Source: Promethearchaeota archaeon (GTDB lineage Archaea > Asgardarchaeota > Lokiarchaeia > Sigyniarchaeales > SOKP01). Taken from it: a DNA stretch of 57,043 bases. Below are positions 3,102 to 15,151 of the stretch, in pieces. The translations under genes were made by a program, and so were the position numbers. The notes below the pieces were generated by a model. That model was given only the letters and a program-made list of their open reading frames with translations. It had not been told where the DNA came from and searched no databases. The DNA lies in the NCBI GenBank assembly GCA_016839765.1, contig JAEOTP010000064.1, positions 1 to 57,043 of the forward strand, read 5' to 3'. Positions within the stretch are counted from its first letter, which is position 1. Each line of letters begins with the position of its first letter.

Positions 3102-4088
3102 ATGAGAAATAAAACCAAAATCAAAATAACTATAGGAGTTTTAGTGATAGTTATAGCATTTTTAAGCATCTGTAATTGTATTATCTTCAATAATTTAGGA
3201 GAAAATGATGTATCCCTAAAAGTTCAAGACGAAATTAATTTAAAAAGTCCGAAAAAGTCGGGGTATTGGAATCTCCAGTTTATCCATATTGATGGTAATT
3301 GGTCTCATACTGCTGGTAACTATACGTGGTGTAGCGGTGATGGTTCGTGGAATAATCCCTATATTATAGAAAATGTTACTATTGATGCGAGTAATTCACC
3401 TACCGGAAGTGGAATTCTTATAAATAATTCTAAAAACGATTATTTTTTCATCAATAATTGTACTGTGTATAATGCGGGTATTGGATACAATGACTCGGGT
3501 ATCAAACTAGAGAATACAAATAATGGAACTATAACAGGGAGTAAATGTTCACACAATGGAAGATTTGGTATATTCTTATACAATCATTGTAAAAATAACA
3601 CAATTTCAGGAAACACTGCAAATGAAAATTATAATTATGGGATTTATTTATTTGATGATTGTGATAACAACACTATTTCGGGAAATACAGTAAATGATAA
3701 TGATTACTCTGGGATACGTTTGTACTGGTATTGTTCTAACTACATCATTTCGAATAACAGTGTAAACTACAATGAGTGGGATGGAATACATTTAGATATT
3801 AGTGGTTATGGCATCATTTCGGGAAATACTGCAAACTACAATAGATATGGGATTCATTTATATAAGAGTCATTCTAACATCATTTCGGGAAATATATTGA
3901 TTGGAAATGATGAATGTATTTTTGAACAAGAATGCGAAGAAAATGTTTTTGAAAATAACGATTGCGTCGAGGCGGAAATCCCTTTCATGATAATTATCGC
4001 AATTATATATACTGTAGGCGGAATAGGATTAGCGGTGGTTATAATAGTTCTATTACTTAAAAGGACACGAGTAAGTGAAAGTATATAG
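3102..4088 (+). CDS. Membrane-anchored parallel beta-helix (NosD/CASH-like) surface protein
   Basis: N-terminal hydrophobic segment, repeated NNTISGNTAN.N..GI.L units, C-terminal TM helix followed by basic residues. Confidence 0.8.
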   Translation: MRNKTKIKITIGVLVIVIAFLSICNCIIFNNLGENDVSLKVQDEINLKSPKKSGYWNLQFIHIDGNWSHTAGNYTWCSGDGSWNNPYIIENVTIDASNSPTGSGILINNSKNDYFFINNCTVYNAGIGYNDSGIKLENTNNGTITGSKCSHNGRFGIFLYNHCKNNTISGNTANENYNYGIYLFDDCDNNTISGNTVNDNDYSGIRLYWYCSNYIISNNSVNYNEWDGIHLDISGYGIISGNTANYNRYGIHLYKSHSNIISGNILIGNDECIFEQECEENVFENNDCVEAEIPFMIIIAIIYTVGGIGLAVVIIVLLLKRTRVSESI

Positions 4089-5171: not shown

Positions 5172-5609
5172 TTATATAACTTTTAAAGGCCCTAATTCTT
5201 TAATTTGATTCGTAAATTCAGTAATTAAATCCGCGAAGCGCTTGCCTTCTGAAGCACTAACCCATTCTAAACGAACTCTTTTTTCATTAATCCCTAGTTG
5301 TTTTATCACTATTTTATGCAACCTTTCAAATCTTTCTTTAGCATATTCGTTACCTGAGATATAATGACAATCTCCAATATGGCAGCCAGTGACTAATACT
5401 CCATCAGCTCCTTCCTTTAAAGCCTTCATGACAAATACCGGATCTACTCTTCCAGAACACATAACTCTTATAATCCTCATATTGGGAGGATATTGGAACC
5501 TTGAGACTCCTGCTAAATCCGCTCCTGCATAAGAGCACCAATTGCAGCAAAACACAAGTATCTCAGGATTAAAATCTGGATATTTAACTTTAGTTTTTGC
5601 TTTTGGAAT
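5172..5609 (-). CDS. mvhD: MvhD/HdrA-associated [2Fe-2S] subunit, Cys form; probable ATT start
   Basis: FCCNWCSYAGADLAG, RVMCSGRVDP, GCHIGDCHY. The frame stays open upstream of GTG 5555 (..DFNPEILVF) to an in-frame TAA with no ATG/GTG/TTG. ATT at 5609 follows AGGTG by 7 nt. Confidence 0.9.
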   Translation of the reverse strand: MPKAKTKVKYPDFNPEILVFCCNWCSYAGADLAGVSRFQYPPNMRIIRVMCSGRVDPVFVMKALKEGADGVLVTGCHIGDCHYISGNEYAKERFERLHKIVIKQLGINEKRVRLEWVSASEGKRFADLITEFTNQIKELGPLKVI

Positions 5610-5630: not shown

Positions 5631-8600
5631 TTAAGTTTCTAATAAATATGATTCTATCATCGCGGTTATTTGATCAAAATCGTATTGCTTTATTGAGATT
5701 GCTCCGTTTGGGCAAGTTGCAGCACATGTGCCACATCCCTTACAGAGGGCAGAATTTATAAAAGATTTTTTTACAGTTAAGCTAATATCCTCAAAATCTT
5801 TTACTGATTCTAGAATATCAATAGCATTATAGGGACATATTGATTCACACTTTCCACATCCTATGCAATTTATTGGATCTACTTCTGCTACTATCCCTGA
5901 GGTGGTAATCTCTTTGGCACTTAGAAATCTACTTGCTCGAGCAGCAGCGCCATTTGCTTGTGAGATTGAATCTTGAATGTTCTTCGGCCATTGAGCACAT
6001 CCACATAAGAAGATTCCATCTGTTGCAAAATCCAGAGGTCTAAGTTTAACATGCGCTTCTAAGAAAAATCCATTTCTATCCAGAGGCACTTTTAACATTT
6101 TTGCTAACTCTTCCAAATTATCTGCAGGGATTATTGGGGTCGATAATATAATTAAATCAGTCTCAAATTCTAAGAAATCTTGTAGGTTGGTATCATAAAA
6201 TTTGATATTATATCTTTCTGGATTTTTATTTATTTGTTTAATTATTAGTAAATTTTCCAAATCATATCTTAAGAAGATAGCATCCTTTCTGCGTTCACGA
6301 TAGTATTCTTCATATTTTTTCTTTGCCATCTGAATATCTCTGTAAAGTACAACAATCTCAAGTTCAGGTTTTAATTTTTTTAGAAGACTAATATTTTTGA
6401 TTGAATTTCCACAACAAATATTTGAACAGTAGGTAATTCCTTCAAGCTGCCTCGCATTTGCACATAAAACAGTCGTTATTCGATTTATCTTAGTAAGCCA
6501 TGATTTTCCTTTTTCTTTTAAAATTTGCTCTAATTCTAGTTGAGTTATAACATTCTTATTTTGGTTATTGTATTGAAACAGATCTTTAGGTTTATATTCT
6601 TTACCTCCAGTAGCAACAATTATAGTTCCAATACTTAAATCTTGAGTTTTGCTATTTGAATCAGCAATAGTTACTACGTAATTACCTACATAACCTCTAA
6701 TATTATTAATTTTTCCTTTTAAGAAAACTTGAATATTCTCATTTTTCTCAACTAAATCAATGGTTTGGTTTAGAAAATCAGAGGCATTTTGTTCGGTTGG
6801 ATATAAAACATTTAGATAATTTAAATTTCCTCCTAGGATGCTTTCTTTTTCTACTATAAATGTTTTGAATCCTTGATTTGCAATATTTAATGCAGCACTC
6901 ATTCCCGCAATTCCACCCCCTATAATTAATGCTGTTGGAGTAATTTTTAACAATTCTTCCCTTAAAGGTTTTAATAACCTTGATTTAGCAATAGCCATTC
7001 TTATTAAGTCTTTAGCTTTTTGGGTTGCGGCTTCTGCATCATCCATATGAACCCAAGAACATTGATCCCTAATATTAACCATTTCAAAGAGATATTTATT
7101 TAATCCAACTTCTTGACATGTTTCTTGAAATAATGCTTCATGTGTTCGAGGTGTACAGGATGCTACGATGAATCTATTTAAATGATGATTTGTAATTAAT
7201 TCTTTAATTCTTGACTGAGAATCAGAGCTACAAGAATATAAATTATCTTCACAATGAACAACATTAGGTAGAGTTCTCACATATTCTGCCAGTAACGGAA
7301 CATGAACATATTTTCCGATATTAATCCCACAATGACAAATTAAAACCCCTATTCTTGGTTCATCAGTATCTTTAGTCTCTAGTTCGGGTACTTCTAACTG
7401 CTTCTCCTTGATTTGCTCAAATTTAACAGAATTTAGAAATGCAGCTATCTGTCCCGCCACACCACTTGCATCTGCAACGGTTTCAGGTATGTCCATCGGG
7501 CCTTGGCAGAATCCACATAAGTAAATCCCATCTTTCGTGGATTTAGATTTATTAAAATAATCTATTTCTTTGAAAAATTCATATTCATCTAATTCTATCC
7601 CTAAAACATTTGATAAAATCTTTGTTCCATTTGAGGGAACTAGAGGAGTAGCTAATACTACTAAATTAGCTTGAAAATCATTAAATTCTCCTGTTTTTAA
7701 ATTTTCATAATGAATAATTAAATCATTAGTTTCAGAATCCTCTTCAATTTTACTAATTTTTGTTTGTATGTATTTCACTCCGTATTCCTTCTGAGCTCTT
7801 TGCGTGAATTCATAGAAATTTTTACCATAAGCTCTAATATCATGTCGAAACACAAAACATTGGGAGCGATTCGAATGTTCTTTCGTGATAATAGCTTCTT
7901 TAGCAGTATACATGCAGCATACGCTTGAACAATAGGGTACACCCTCATGTAAATCTCTTGAACCAGCACATTGAATAAATGCAATTTTCTCAGGCTCTTT
8001 TTGATCACTTGGTCGCAAGACATGACCACCAAAAGGTCCTGAAGCACATAAAATTCTTTCATATTCTAATGCACTTACTACATTATTATACCGATATCCC
8101 CACCTTGAAGTTAACTTTTCAGCTGGTATATCAAATCCAGTCGCAACTACAATAGCTCCAACCTTTAATTCTATTTCCATAGGTTTTTGCTCAAAATCTA
8201 TTGCTTCAGCTTGACAAACTTTAGCACATACACCACATACTCCTTTATTTATTTTTAAGCATAATTCAGGATCTATTAAGTAAATTGGAGGAACTGCTTG
8301 AGGAAATGGAATGTAAGCAGATTTTCTTTTGCCTAGCTTCATATCAAATAGATTAGGTACTTCTATTTTTGGACATTTTATAGCGCAATCTCCACACCCC
8401 TTACATTTAGTCTCATCTACATATCGTGGCTTTTTAAGAATAATAGCAGAGAAATTCCCAGGTTCTCCAGAAACTTTTTTTACTTCATGATAAGTCATAA
8501 GTTTAATATTTGGATTACGGAATACCTCAACCATCTTTGGAGCAAGAATACAAAGGCTGCAATCGTTAGTTGGAAATGTTTTATCGAGCTGAGCCATACG

Positions 8601-8729
8601 ACCTCCAATTGAGGGATTTCTTTCTACTAAATATACCTTAAAACCTAATTCTGTTAGGTCTAATGAAGTTTGAATACCTGCGATTCCTCCTCCGATAACT
8701 AAAACAGATCCTTCCATTATTTTTTTCAA
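5631..8729 (-). CDS. hdrA: Large HdrA-type heterodisulfide reductase flavoprotein (two FAD domains, all-Cys)
   Basis: GGGIAG x2, LDKTFPTNDCSLCILAPK, ICHCG, YSCS, ASCTPRTHE, QCSWVH and ferredoxin motifs. Confidence 0.92.
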   Translation of the reverse strand: MKKIMEGSVLVIGGGIAGIQTSLDLTELGFKVYLVERNPSIGGRMAQLDKTFPTNDCSLCILAPKMVEVFRNPNIKLMTYHEVKKVSGEPGNFSAIILKKPRYVDETKCKGCGDCAIKCPKIEVPNLFDMKLGKRKSAYIPFPQAVPPIYLIDPELCLKINKGVCGVCAKVCQAEAIDFEQKPMEIELKVGAIVVATGFDIPAEKLTSRWGYRYNNVVSALEYERILCASGPFGGHVLRPSDQKEPEKIAFIQCAGSRDLHEGVPYCSSVCCMYTAKEAIITKEHSNRSQCFVFRHDIRAYGKNFYEFTQRAQKEYGVKYIQTKISKIEEDSETNDLIIHYENLKTGEFNDFQANLVVLATPLVPSNGTKILSNVLGIELDEYEFFKEIDYFNKSKSTKDGIYLCGFCQGPMDIPETVADASGVAGQIAAFLNSVKFEQIKEKQLEVPELETKDTDEPRIGVLICHCGINIGKYVHVPLLAEYVRTLPNVVHCEDNLYSCSSDSQSRIKELITNHHLNRFIVASCTPRTHEALFQETCQEVGLNKYLFEMVNIRDQCSWVHMDDAEAATQKAKDLIRMAIAKSRLLKPLREELLKITPTALIIGGGIAGMSAALNIANQGFKTFIVEKESILGGNLNYLNVLYPTEQNASDFLNQTIDLVEKNENIQVFLKGKINNIRGYVGNYVVTIADSNSKTQDLSIGTIIVATGGKEYKPKDLFQYNNQNKNVITQLELEQILKEKGKSWLTKINRITTVLCANARQLEGITYCSNICCGNSIKNISLLKKLKPELEIVVLYRDIQMAKKKYEEYYRERRKDAIFLRYDLENLLIIKQINKNPERYNIKFYDTNLQDFLEFETDLIILSTPIIPADNLEELAKMLKVPLDRNGFFLEAHVKLRPLDFATDGIFLCGCAQWPKNIQDSISQANGAAARASRFLSAKEITTSGIVAEVDPINCIGCGKCESICPYNAIDILESVKDFEDISLTVKKSFINSALCKGCGTCAATCPNGAISIKQYDFDQITAMIESYLLET

Positions 8730-10001: not shown

Positions 10002-11114
10002 TTAGAGTATATTTTTCATAAATTCTTCTCGACGTTTAACCTTCGATTCTGAATATTGAGTTATCAATTTTATCATTTTATCCTTTTGAACTTCATCAAG
10101 ATCTACTGCTCTGATTACCCCCGCGTCTAGAGCTTTTTTCAACACGTCTATTCCTTTTTTAGTTCGCGGGATTACAGTAGTGTATTTATCTTGTGAACCT
10201 AATCCCCCAAAAGAAATATCAGCATAAATGTTTGTGAAATCACTGCAAGCATTACATGCAGGGCGCATATAGTCTTTTAAGTGATTAAAAGGAATATGAA
10301 TAATTTTTTCACCAGTTCCCATATCCTTTAACTTGAATATAACATCTTCTTTAATATTTATTTTTTCGAGATCTCTAAATTTTATATTAAAATCTTTTTC
10401 AAATTTTTCTATTTGAAATTTCTCAAAGAAGAAATTTTCATAACAGAATAAGCCTAAGCAGATTTCTATATTTTCTGATGGGGTTACCCCTAAATCTTGC
10501 ATGCACCTAATCGTGTAAAGTTGGCACGGAGTTCCTACAACCGCCAATTTCTTAAATTTATAGTGATTTAATTTGGGGATAGAATGAGTATACGTACAGA
10601 ATTTTTGGATTTCATCAAGCTGGGGAGATATATCTAATTTAGCTCCTGAAGCTTTTATTAAATCATATTTACTGTCAGCGAAAGTTGCTTCTCTTGAAAA
10701 AGGAGCATCAGTTTTTGAAACAATAGAGCCATCAATTAACCTTTTTTCAATTAAAAAATTTATAATAGAATTTACTACTCCTCCATCAGTTCCATAATCT
10801 AGAAAATCCTTATCCGTTGCTTGACATGAATAAATATTCTCGTAATATCCAATTGGCGTTGACGAAAATCCTGCAAATTTATAGGTTTGATTAAGTTCAT
10901 TATCTAGAACATGAGTTTGTGGGCAAATATAATAACAAATCCCACACTCAAGACATTTATCTTTATTAATATATTCAGGAGGTTTATATGGATCTTTTAA
11001 TCCAATCACATCATATTCAGCTGAACTACAAAAACTTACACATCCACCACATTCTTGGCAGATACCTTTTTCGTGAACCTCCTCAATAAGATCCTGGAAT
11101 GTTTTAGAATCCAT
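10002..11114 (-). CDS. Coenzyme F420 hydrogenase/dehydrogenase beta subunit (FrhB/FdhB family) with N-terminal 2x[4Fe-4S]
   Basis: CQECGGCVSFC, CLECGICYYICP, DGGVV, VGTPCQ, GLFCYENF, C..C.DF...ADISFG. Confidence 0.88.
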   Translation of the reverse strand: MDSKTFQDLIEEVHEKGICQECGGCVSFCSSAEYDVIGLKDPYKPPEYINKDKCLECGICYYICPQTHVLDNELNQTYKFAGFSSTPIGYYENIYSCQATDKDFLDYGTDGGVVNSIINFLIEKRLIDGSIVSKTDAPFSREATFADSKYDLIKASGAKLDISPQLDEIQKFCTYTHSIPKLNHYKFKKLAVVGTPCQLYTIRCMQDLGVTPSENIEICLGLFCYENFFFEKFQIEKFEKDFNIKFRDLEKINIKEDVIFKLKDMGTGEKIIHIPFNHLKDYMRPACNACSDFTNIYADISFGGLGSQDKYTTVIPRTKKGIDVLKKALDAGVIRAVDLDEVQKDKMIKLITQYSESKVKRREEFMKNIL

Positions 11115-11128
11115 AATTATTAAATTTT

Positions 11129-12631
11129 TTATTCTTTTTGTGTTTCTAATATAATAGGTTTACATTTTTTTCTTTTGGATATAGCTATCCTCTCAACAAG
11201 ACCTTGTCCTGGTTTAACTTCCTTCAAATTTTGGTATTCTATCAAGCCAGCATCAACCGCTCCTTTAAAAATTTCTTCTCCTTCTTTTGAACGTGTGATT
11301 ACAGAAGAATAACCACTTTGTGAGCCAATGGAGCCTACTGAAATATCTGCATAGTCTGAGGTTAGATCCTCACAGTAATGACAATTATCTCGTGCATACG
11401 ATTGAACTTCTTTCAAATCTACTGCCAATTCTTCACCTGATTTTAAAGTTATTATGAACTTACCCTTATCTATGTTCATCTTTGTTAATTCATTAATATC
11501 TTGGTTAAATTTATCTTTCGCCAATTTAATGATATCCAAGTAAGAAAATGACTCCATACAAAACAAGCCAACTTTATATTTAATATTTTTAAAGAACGGG
11601 AGTCCACTTGGGAATAGGGTTCCCTTTTCAATAGCTTTCATCATACAAGGAACGCCTACGATTGCAATCTTATTATATTTCTTTGCTTGATCTATAATTT
11701 TTAATGAGGGCGCATTGGCATATTTTGTACCCCCTGTTTTATATAAATCTTTTACATCATCTATTATAATTGGTTCTGGTCTCCATAAATCACTTGAATG
11801 TTGTACTGCTATTATCGCATCTACTAATTTATTCTCTAATAAGTACTCTAATAAAGATGTTACAATACCTCCATCTTGACGCACTTTCTTTATTTCATCT
11901 TTAGTTGTTGTTCCCGTATATGCATTAATATAACCCCCTATTTTTTCAGAGTAAGTCAGTGATTTATCTAGTTTTTTGATACTTTGATAAGCTTGATCAA
12001 TAGAAAAGGAGCGAGGACATACTGTAAAACATAAACCGCATTTCATACAAATATTATCATCGATTTCAAGATTATCTGCTGTTACTTCTATTGCATTTAC
12101 TGGACATACAGAAGAACACCACCCACAATAACAACAGACTCCTGAATCGAATACTATTGAAACTGGTTCAAAATAATGTTCAGTAAAATCATGCGGCACC
12201 TCTTTTACTTGATATCTATAGAAATATTCCTTTTCTTCGACTTCTTTTTCTTCCCCCTTTATTTTTTTTATTACCGTTTTTGTTTTAATTTCGACTTGTT
12301 CTTCAACGTATCCTTGCTCCTTTAAATAAATAACGTCTCGGATTACATTTTCAGCTAGAAAAGCTTTAATACTTTTAGTGATTTCTTCTAAAAATAATGG
12401 TTTTTTACCTCTTAGTTGATCCAAGACTATTTTGCGTTCAGTTTCTGCATCTATCATAGTATCTAGAATTTCATAGAATTCTTGCTCAGAATATTTCCCA
12501 GTTTTTAATATTTCTTCTTTTGCTTCAAAAAATGCTCTAACTTGAAAATTTTCAGAAGCTTTATATGTTGCTTCTAATAATTCCTTAGGAGAAATTCCAC
12601 TAAACAATTTATTATTTACTATTTGAACCAT
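11129..12631 (-). CDS. FrhB/FdhB-family protein with a ~150-aa extra N-terminal helical/winged-helix-like region
   Basis: CCYCGWCSSVCP, CMKCGLCFTVCP, QDGGIVT, GTKY, VGVPC, GLFCMESF, CHYCEDLTSDYADISVG. Confidence 0.88.
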   Translation of the reverse strand: MVQIVNNKLFSGISPKELLEATYKASENFQVRAFFEAKEEILKTGKYSEQEFYEILDTMIDAETERKIVLDQLRGKKPLFLEEITKSIKAFLAENVIRDVIYLKEQGYVEEQVEIKTKTVIKKIKGEEKEVEEKEYFYRYQVKEVPHDFTEHYFEPVSIVFDSGVCCYCGWCSSVCPVNAIEVTADNLEIDDNICMKCGLCFTVCPRSFSIDQAYQSIKKLDKSLTYSEKIGGYINAYTGTTTKDEIKKVRQDGGIVTSLLEYLLENKLVDAIIAVQHSSDLWRPEPIIIDDVKDLYKTGGTKYANAPSLKIIDQAKKYNKIAIVGVPCMMKAIEKGTLFPSGLPFFKNIKYKVGLFCMESFSYLDIIKLAKDKFNQDINELTKMNIDKGKFIITLKSGEELAVDLKEVQSYARDNCHYCEDLTSDYADISVGSIGSQSGYSSVITRSKEGEEIFKGAVDAGLIEYQNLKEVKPGQGLVERIAISKRKKCKPIILETQKE

Positions 12632-12690
12632 ATTTCAATCCATTTCTATCCTTAACTAAAAAATTCAAATTTATTATTAATTAATTTAAA

Positions 12691-12762
12691 AACCCCCCCT
12701 TTGCAAGGTAAGTCACCTTAAAACTAAAATTTTATTTTAAGATTCATTCTACGGGAGTAGTT
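12691..12762 (-). promoter_or_regulatory. Eukaryote-like SECIS element overlapping the vhuD stop codon
   Basis: Minus strand GTAG-A-ATGA-ATCTTAAAAT-[AAAATTTTA]-GTTTTAAGGT-GA-C-TTAC: AUGA/GA kink-turn core, 10-bp helix (2 G-U pairs), apical loop beginning AAA, lower helix GTAG/TTAC plus AACT(A)CTCCC/GGGGGGGTT. Confidence 0.8.
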
Positions 12763-13202
12763 ACTACTTTCTTTTTAATAGATTTCATATCCATGGTATT
12801 AATCGGATTTGGTCCCGCCCGCCTTATTTTTTCAAGAGCGTCTTCAACGCTTTTAACTAGTTTTTCAGATTCTGCACCGCTTAACCAGTACATGTTGACT
12901 CTTTGACTTCCAAACCCTCGAGATTCTAAAATTCTATTTGCCAAATCTACATGTCTTTGGGCTGTATAATTACCATTTTTAAATTGACATTCATCAGGTC
13001 TTCATCCAACAACCATAACACCATCAGCTCCAGATTTGATAGTATATAAAATATGTTTCACATCAATCCTTCCAGTACACTTAACTTTGATGATTTTTAC
13101 TGATGGTGTATACTTTAAACGAGAAACTCCAGCCAAATCAGCAGCACTATAACCTCACTTTAAACAAGCAAACATAATTATTTTATAGTTATAACCTTCC
13201 AT
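12744..13202 (-). CDS. vhuD: Selenocysteine-containing MvhD/VhuD (152 aa; Sec16, Sec67)
   Basis: ATG 13202 after GGAGG: MEGYNYKIIMFACLK-U-GYSAADLAGVSR...KCTGRID...GADGVMVVG-U-RPDECQF. In-frame TGAs at 13155-13157 and 13002-13004 match Cys in the paralogue motifs CNWCSY and GCHIGDC. Confidence 0.92.
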
Positions 13203-13210
13203 TTTGATGT

Positions 13211-15151
13211 TTAACCTCCTTCTAGTAATCCATCTATCTCAGCATATAATTGATAATCACGGTAATAACGAATATCAATAGCTTGTGTAGGACAACAGGT
13301 TGCACATATCCCGCATCCATCGCAATTTATTTCATCAACAACAGCGCCTTCCTCATCGACTATTTTAATAGCCATCTTAGGACATTCTTTTTCACATCTT
13401 CTGCATGAGATACAAAACTCATTATCTACTTCAGCAGTAATAAGCTCAATATCTATCTCTCCTGGGGCTGTTAATTCAGCGACTTTACTCGCTGCTGCTC
13501 TTGCTTGGGATACGGAATAGGCAATGTCCTTAGGACCTTGAGCAAAGCCCGCAATAAAGATACCTTTTGTTTTAGTTTCTTGCGGCATTAAGCCAAAGTG
13601 GGATTCAGTTAGAAATCCATTTCTGTCAGCATCCAAATTTAAGACTTTTACAATTCGTTGTGTTCCTTCAGAAGGTAATGCTGCGGTAGATAACACTACT
13701 AGATCAGCATCTATTTTAATGATTTCATCAGTTAAAGAAGAGTAAACTCTAATTTTAATGTCTTTACTCTCAGGGTCTTCTGAAAATTCACCAACTTTAC
13801 CGCGAATCATCTTAATATCGGAGTCTTTAGCACGCTGATAATATTCTTCGAAACCTTTTTCATTAGTTCTTATATCAATATAGCATATAGTAATATTTGC
13901 GTCTGGAAATTCTTCTTTAAGTAATTTTCCATTCTTTAATGCTAACATACAACAAACACCGCTACAATATGGTCGTTCTGAGTCTCTACTACCGACACAT
14001 TGGATAAAAACGATTTCTTTTGGTTTTTTATTGTCTGATAGGCGCCTTACATGTCCCTCTAAAGGTCCGTTTGGTGCTAGTATTCTTTCTAATTGAGCTT
14101 GAGTTATTACATTTTCGAACTCACCATAACCATATTCACCAAAAGGTTCATAAATATCCCACCCCGTTGCTATGATTATTGTGCCAACTTTAAATTTTAC
14201 CTCTTTAGGTACTTGACTGAAATCTATAGCATCTAATTCACAAGCTTCTATACAGCTAAAACATTCAACGCATGAATCCCTGTTTACATCATACAAAAAT
14301 GGTACTGCTTGACCGAATGCAATATCTATGGCCTTACGAGCGCCCAAATATTCATCAAAATAGTTAGAAGTATAAACGGGACAAACTTCAGCACAAGCTC
14401 CACATCCATTGCAATCTTCATTGATGTATCTTGGTTTCATCTTAACTATTATATTATAATTACCAACATATCCAGAAACCTCTTTTACTTCACTAAAACT
14501 TAGAATCTCTATATTTTCATTTCGATTGACATCTAGCATTTTTGGACCACAGATTCATATAGCACAGTCATCAGTGGGAAATGTCCGGTCTAATTGTGCC
14601 ATTCTACCTCCAATAGTTGTTTTACTATCTACAAGATAAACCTTAATACCTTGATTAGCAAGATCTAAAGCAGCATTCATCCCTGCTATTCCTCCACCCA
14701 CTACCAGTGTAGCTTTTTCAACAGGAACAGTTTTAATTGGCACTATTTCAAGTTGTTTTGCTCGCTCAATCCCACTTTTTACTAAGATTTTAGCTTTGTC
14801 TAAAGCTTCTTCATTCTTTTCTGTACACCAAGAACAATGTTCTCGAACATTAACCATCTGAAAATAGTATGGATTTAAATCGGTTTTGGCGATTGAATCT
14901 CTATAAATCGGTTCGTGAGTACGAGGAGTTCAAGCAGAAGCTACAATACGATTTAATTTCTTCTCTTTGATGTCTTCAATAATCTCGTTTTGACCGCTTT
15001 CTGTTCATAGGAAACTGTGCTGTTTCGAGACAATTACTCCATCGAGTTTTTTAGCAAATTCTACTAGCTTATTGCAATCAACTTTGCCACGAATATTAAT
15101 ACCTCATTGACAAGCATAGTATCCAATCCGATGCATATCAGATTCTTCCAT
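13211..15151 (-). CDS. hdrA: Selenocysteine-containing HdrA (646 aa; Sec16, Sec49, Sec74, Sec199)
   Basis: One continuous frame from ATG 15151 (GAGGTGG upstream) joins ORFs 14555..14857 and 13211..14539. TGAs at 15104-6 (ACQ-U-GINI), 15005-7 (FL-U-TE), 14930-2 (ASA-U-TPRTHE) and 14555-7 (DDCAI-U-ICGPK) each align to a Cys of the 5631..8729 paralogue. Confidence 0.92.

Follow-up and report, generated by a model that had tools for sequence, protein, structure and literature searches.

The window discussed here is one stretch of lokiarchaeal DNA of 57,043 nt, and all of its features described below lie on the minus strand. Between 5172 and 15151 it carries, in reading order, a selenocysteine (Sec)-type hdrA, a Sec-type vhuD, two frhB-like genes, a CCG/HdrD-like gene, a large Cys-type hdrA and a Cys-type vhuD. 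The first of these, hdrA (13211..15151), has 646 codons, ends on TAA and encodes FAD and 4Fe-4S domains according to a domain search. Its four in-frame UGA codons (15106, 15007, 14932 and 14557) align to Cys residues of the all-Cys paralogue at 5631-8729. After a gap of 8 nt follows vhuD (mvhD, frhD; 12744..13202; PF02662), which codes for 152 residues between an ATG at 13202 and a TGA at 12746-12744. It has Sec codons at positions 16 (TGA 13157) and 67 (TGA 13004), both in frame and both matched by Cys when the gene is aligned with its Cys paralogue at 5172-5582. A Shine-Dalgarno-like AGGAGG (13215..13220) within the last hdrA codons, with an 8-nt gap to the vhuD ATG, suggests that the translation of both cistrons may be coupled. 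Presumably they are also co-transcribed; the available metatranscriptome contigs cover only fragments of the locus.

A comparison of ortholog tails shows that VhuD ends in a variable, Lys-rich stretch of about 20 residues. The final codons of this stretch double as the 5' arm of a SECIS element. The genes 3' of this element, beginning with an FrhB-like ORF that starts at 12631, are free of in-frame UGA, and one of them stops at TGA (8726). A covariance model built from orthologs found no second SECIS in the 57-kb window. The single element is therefore the only candidate to serve all six UGA codons of hdrA and vhuD, which sit 258-2360 nt 5' of it.

The core of the element has the layout of a kink-turn (K-turn). 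Its 5' strand (12744..12750) consists of AG, which provides a canonical stem of 2 bp, a 3-nt bulge AAU, and GA. The AUGA motif occupies 12747-12744, and its UGA (12746-12744) is the in-frame stop codon of vhuD. In the 3' strand GA-CU (12711..12714) the GA lies at 12714-12713, while C12712 pairs with G12749 and U12711 with A12750. All sequence features expected of a kink-turn, namely the canonical stem, the 3-nt bulge ending in U and the tandem G.A/A.G pairs, are present. Above the core stands the upper stem P2 (12715..12743), 9 bp long (12743-12735 with 12723-12715) and often non-canonical at its first pair. It is capped by an 11-nt loop (12734-12724; UAAAAUUUUAG), which is A-rich on its 5' side and ends in AG.

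A sequence-only reading had already recognized this element, with the true vhuD stop in its AUGA, its 5' arm in coding sequence and an AUGA..GA K-turn in place of the methanogen GAA/A bulge. All of this is confirmed, and the conserved structure has no GAA/A bulge. Two details of the proposed fold had to be given up. The helix had been drawn with 10 bp; a tenth pair, U:G, could form on thermodynamic grounds (p 0.78), but the U varies and the G is invariant, and the register is one of 9 bp with an 11-nt loop. The positions of the proposed GUAG:UUAC stem pair in only 66, 30, 42 and 39 of 76 homologues, with a pair probability of 0.05. By contrast, all 76 homologues form the canonical K-turn pair G12749:C12712, as do all 141 of the larger set, and other clades have it as U-A or A-U.

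The 3' ends of vhuD had been named as a place to look for covariation, and there the core and the stem are indeed conserved with compensatory changes. Among 22 orthologs the AUGA and the loop-terminal G are invariant, and 93.9% of the cells of P2 are paired, with compensatory change at 4 pairs, in an alignment that was not fitted to structure. A strict core pattern finds 5 matches in the 3.3-Mb genome and none in 10 shuffled genomes. All 5 follow UGA-containing ORFs: vhuD, vhuU, a second hdrA and two small unlisted ORFs. The element is absent from all 36 Cys-type vhuD loci examined. Single-sequence folding of the element is not significant (z -0.35), and no SECIS family in Rfam matches it at E up to 10.

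How does the element relate to known SECIS types? The text of Mariotti et al. 2016 (PMC4989117) defines the lokiSECIS by an AUGA, a 9-bp stem, an 11-nt loop that has adenines on its 5' side and ends in AG, and a GA or AA. It describes one element after vhuD that serves as many as six UGA across about 2 kb in HdrA-VhuD. The window matches this description. Adenines stand within the first five loop positions, a G (usually AG) closes the loop, and GA follows the stem. A single element lies near the end of a selenoprotein gene, after an hdrA-vhuD tandem, and the host is a Lokiarchaeon with Sec machinery. Judged by its sequence, the element is a real lokiSECIS, with every lokiSECIS feature that can be tested. 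The same text reports that the element overlaps coding sequence and that the AUGA is the stop codon in VhuU.1; there, the case concerns VhuU.1, not vhuD, and is not quantified. Huang, Xiao and Zhang 2024 (PMC11227280) describe in their text a Type I eSECIS-like element with a GA_[G/A]A core, a stem of 7-15 bp and a loop of 8-20 nt, shared by hdrA and frhD and with a lower stem noted, and state that UGA stops in Lokiarchaeia frequently overlap the AUGA motif. An eukaryote-like SECIS, the AUGA as stop codon and the overlap have thus been published, and no new mechanism is needed for them.

With the eukaryotic form-1 SECIS the element shares the AUGA..GA K-turn core and unpaired apical adenines. 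It differs in having a shorter upper stem, an invariant G that closes the loop, and a third helix. Furthermore, the form-1 SECIS sits 0.2-5 kb into a 3' UTR, whereas the element of the window overlaps the ORF and would serve two cistrons. Of the form-1 type it has the core layout, but not the 3' UTR position, a match to the Rfam models or an SBP2 partner. The methanogen (euryarchaeal) SECIS has the same 3' position and also serves hdrA and vhuD, and methanogen vhuD elements likewise have AUGA..GAC; the GAA/A bulge with its G-C clamp has no counterpart here. The element would work like a eukaryotic form-1 SECIS but is not one, and it does not belong to the methanogen GAA/A type either.

The third helix becomes visible when the flanks of the core are considered. 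As had been noticed before, CUCCC (12757-12753) is able to pair with GGGGG (12697-12693). This pairing is part of a closing helix, P1, formed by ACUCCC (12753..12758), which lies inside vhuD coding sequence, and GGGGGU (12692..12697). What had been missed is a side hairpin, P3 (CCU-UGCAA-AGG, 12698..12708), with a conserved G-C/U in its loop. Beyond the 2-bp canonical stem, P1, P3 and the K-turn arm make up a predicted three-way junction. A joint fit of P1 and P3 is found in 139 of 141 Sec-vhuD elements, about ten of which were retrieved with an RNA model and the remainder by protein; shuffled 3' arms give a mean of 14 and a maximum of 24. The strands of P1 are clade-specific, that is, they pair within but mostly not across paralogue clades. 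The loop region of P3 holds G-C in 128/141 elements and G-U in 11/141, compared to 35 expected from shuffles. One paralogue clade came out misaligned in MAFFT, which was therefore replaced by anchored scripts and a covariance model. In a 90-sequence alignment that was fitted to the model, and therefore leans towards structure, 6/6 P1 pairs and 3/3 P3 pairs show double changes, and RNAalifold recovers P1, P2 and two of the P3 pairs from it. Within the ortholog clade the C-G pairs of P3 are invariant and so show no covariation; the evidence for them comes from the wider sets.

P3 also occurs 3' of vhuU elements in the window's own class and in another Asgard class, in the vhuD elements of two further classes and in the selD element of this genome. 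In folding of the window sequence P1 and P3 are populated at 0.3-0.4 only, and they probably need the K-turn, ions or a protein to form. Pairing of the P3 loop with the 3' end of the apical loop was considered and rejected, as no matching variation was seen. In the running text of the papers on lokiSECIS and Asgard SECIS we found no description of P3 or a three-way junction, and a literature search for SECIS elements with a three-way junction returned no Asgard paper. The running text of Mariotti et al. 2016 (PMC4989117) has neither the 3' side hairpin nor the junction. According to the text of Huang 2024 (PMC11227280), what separates the core from the lower stem is an internal loop in which no nucleotides are highly conserved; here the same region holds P3 with its near-invariant G-C/U loop.

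Several loci illustrate the range of forms. At the 3' end of selD in the same genome (locus L101, 2500-2590, contig C51) the element bears a mini-stem at its apex, and its core is atypical in lacking a plain AUGA, yet P1 and P3 with its UGCAA loop are kept. In another Asgard class the Sec-vhuD domains of four loci (L214, L217, L218 and L219) end open frames of about 1100 aa, which are probable HdrA-VhuD fusions; they carry a type II-like SECIS with P3, and in three of them the core UGA is the stop. All listed vhuD matches of one Asgard class (L231-L245) are of the Cys type, although vhuU in that class is a Sec gene with a SECIS that includes P3. The element at L063, 202 nt downstream, shows no junction fit and may be spurious.

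Do P1 and P3 belong to the recoding element at all? P3 could instead be a separate terminator or an mRNA-stability hairpin behind the SECIS, with P1 likewise standing outside. A U5 tract (12688..12692) directly 3' of P1 would fit a possible archaeal terminator, and the published models, in their texts, leave P3 out. A terminator scan made no call on the minus strand, U5 tract included. However, P1 encloses P3 and has its own 5' strand upstream of the core. The position of P3 is fixed relative to the GA, and its loop keeps the G-C or G-U far beyond the shuffled expectation. It follows vhuD, vhuU, hdrA and selD elements, and no such element is found after Cys-type vhuD. These points argue against a separate hairpin, which we regard as improbable. 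As a comparative result drawn from sequences, the family-wide third helix is solid. That the Asgard SECIS is a three-way-junction RNA and not a shortened two-helix eukaryotic SECIS, with a junction that is real, functional in recoding and undescribed so far, is a stronger statement, to which we would give an even chance. P3 may be a docking site for an archaeal SECIS-binding factor or for EFSec, or may make a tertiary contact, being kept across selenoprotein families and Asgard classes.

The genome holds most of the parts that such an element would work with. The tRNA-Sec, SepSecS and a UGA-containing selD all score above curated cut-offs, while a full-length PSTK-like gene scores below its cut-off and EFSec appears as fragment candidates only, at contig ends. 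The 96% complete genome has only two ORFs with an L7Ae domain, both small (open frames of 144 and 134 aa), and no L7Ae protein of the size of SBP2. The K-turn is probably bound by a small L7Ae/L30e-type protein, and the SECIS would recruit EFSec and Sec-tRNA to the six UGA codons upstream.

We now turn to the overlap of core and stop codon. The sequence-only reading had suggested that burial of the stop inside the SECIS could be how the cell protects this UGA from recoding. On such a view a UGA stop within the K-turn would be favored by selection, as the terminating ribosome melts the element, and other stops would be escapes to UAA or UAG. Some counts lend themselves to it. The core UGA is the stop in 48/63 close orthologs and recurs as stop in several distant lineages, and 53 of the 65 vhuD genes that end on UGA use it. 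In vhuU (loci L246-L310) the overlap varies far less: the core is the stop in 58/65 genes across two Asgard classes, and 7/7 exceptions are UAA or UAG. The sampled genomes are related, so these stop counts, like those of conservation, overstate independence. The model R1 is narrow and missed most distant Asgard genomes; its misses do not mean absence.

A wider look at vhuD points in another direction. The 141 Sec-vhuD genes stop at the core UGA in 53 cases, upstream of it in 85 and inside the upper stem in 3; among paralogues the core UGA is the stop in just 5/78. Nearly half of the upstream stops (41 of 85) are a UAG 5 nt before the core. Orthologs alternate between the core UGA, this UAG and a UAA 16-17 nt upstream, and in a tree of 46 orthologs from which tail and SECIS were left out, at least four switches among these states are required. 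The sister pair of the window's own clade (87-91% identical) stops at UAG, and an indel of 1 nt in the 5' arm is enough to flip the stop state. Eleven vhuD genes stop on a UGA 4-30 nt 5' of the core, and in four of these it lies 22-30 nt away, at the margin of the element or beyond it. In one paralogue clade TGA even substitutes for TAA at the same site 22-24 nt 5' of the core. Translation across the core is tolerated: in three vhuD ORFs (L112, L137 and L201) the frame stays open through the AUGA, and the stop comes 7 or 13 nt into the upper stem or loop.

Further, a selected back-up stop was considered and dismissed. A TAA behind the core, which is itself part of P2, is found in 33/36 genes in which the core is the stop and in 11/11 in which it is not, and hence is no commoner in core-stop genes. 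Of the stop triplets that a ribosome can meet on its way into the 5' arm, only the core UGA is invariant, and its frequent use is expected without selection. For vhuU, the distance from Sec to stop is 84 nt in 63/65 genes (18/20 in one count), whichever stop is used, and a fixed protein end together with an invariant core can lock the overlap without any extra function. With the switches among orthologs and the eleven upstream UGA stops, burial as a protective device did not hold up as proposed, and we consider its selection unlikely.

It is also conceivable that ribosomes finishing both Sec insertions in VhuD unfold the SECIS and limit recoding by trailing ribosomes, which would balance HdrA, VhuD and selenium use. 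The geometry would allow such feedback, since in most of the genes sampled the 5' arm belongs to the coding sequence and finishing ribosomes disrupt it. Any stop inside the 5' arm would have this effect, not the core stop in particular. The element is retained in paralogues whose stops lie 21-24 nt upstream, and a hairpin of such size should refold quickly. Feedback is accordingly a very unlikely reason for the overlap.

A further possibility is that the core UGA is not a stop at all but a third Sec codon. Its read-through would indeed add U-I-L-K before a TAA, as the translation confirms, and the protein would gain a C-terminal tail resembling that of thioredoxin reductase; most core-stop orthologs have an in-frame TAA 2-3 codons later. 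The residues behind the UGA are dictated by the stem P2, and the SECIS should not be able to fold while its core occupies the A site. We rejected this candidate on two grounds, namely that sister orthologs stop earlier on UAG or UAA and that the Cys paralogues have no aligned Cys. It has next to no plausibility left.

If neither protection nor feedback is called for, what keeps a UGA so near to a SECIS from being recoded? A hint comes from the upstream cistron. Its stop lies about 470 nt from the core, and among 117 hdrA stops we count 88 TAA, 29 TAG and no TGA, compared to about 13% TGA among the long ORFs of this genome; one apparent TGA stop (L024) was an artefact of masked bases. In the text of Mariotti et al. 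2016 (PMC4989117) hdrA stops are likewise UAA or UAG, and a minimal distance between UGA and SECIS is proposed. Such a minimum-distance rule would explain both observations, hdrA genes without UGA stops and vhuD genes with UGA stops near the core. The shortest distance from UGA to core in an established selenoprotein is the 84 nt of vhuU. This turns the qualitative idea of Mariotti et al. into numbers: UGA terminates when it lies no more than about 30 nt 5' of the core, and would be recoded from 84 nt or less away.

Three loci outside the hdrA-vhuD arrangement are worth recording here. A small ORF with one hydrophobic helix and the sequence GGG-U-P-C-P (L035, 1144-1338; contig C12, about 3643-3837, plus strand) is a candidate for an unlisted membrane selenoprotein; a textbook lokiSECIS lies 58 nt after its UGA, and its UGA stop is found 7 nt before the core. 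On contig C20 an ORF ending at about 10825 (plus strand) contains C-U-U, that is, two adjacent UGA codons, 117 nt before a lokiSECIS with P3; the SECIS core is at 10837 and the TAA stop 12 nt before it. A Sec-hdrA on contig C33 (L033, 15260-17320, plus strand) is not followed by a vhuD and carries a SECIS of its own immediately behind the TAA; it is an exception to the pairing of hdrA and vhuD.

Taken together, we think it likely that a lokiSECIS common to a bicistronic hdrA-vhuD mRNA acts here as a three-way junction, under a distance rule and with an overlap that is tolerated and compact. The junction would comprise P1 as the closing helix, a canonical K-turn that carries P2 and its A-rich loop, and the short 3' hairpin P3. 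A UGA within about 30 nt of the core would be too close to be served, or the element would already be melted by the ribosome, and termination would follow. Similarly, a ribosome with the core UGA in its A site has melted the K-turn, and on physical grounds this codon should not be recodable by its own SECIS. The dispensable tail of vhuD would then enter the 5' arm and end at the first in-frame stop, most frequently the core UGA, which is invariant, and in second place the UAG within the K-turn strand. The overlap would be a compact arrangement that is optional in vhuD rather than a dedicated protective or feedback device. What speaks against this account is the use of the core as stop in distant lineages and in 58/65 vhuU genes, which is more than a neutral model obviously needs.

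For the biology of the Asgard selenoproteins, the conserved third helix matters more than the overlap with the stop codon. The near-invariant loop of P3 offers a concrete target for understanding how archaea recognize a SECIS without SBP2, and P3 may have been lost en route to the SBP2-dependent SECIS of eukaryotes. A lokiarchaeal vhuU.2 element was inactive in M. maripaludis, in a report that does not list the limits of the construct (PMC11881835); the junction sets the boundaries for any heterologous test of an Asgard SECIS. It also provides a more specific model with which to search for Asgard selenoproteins.
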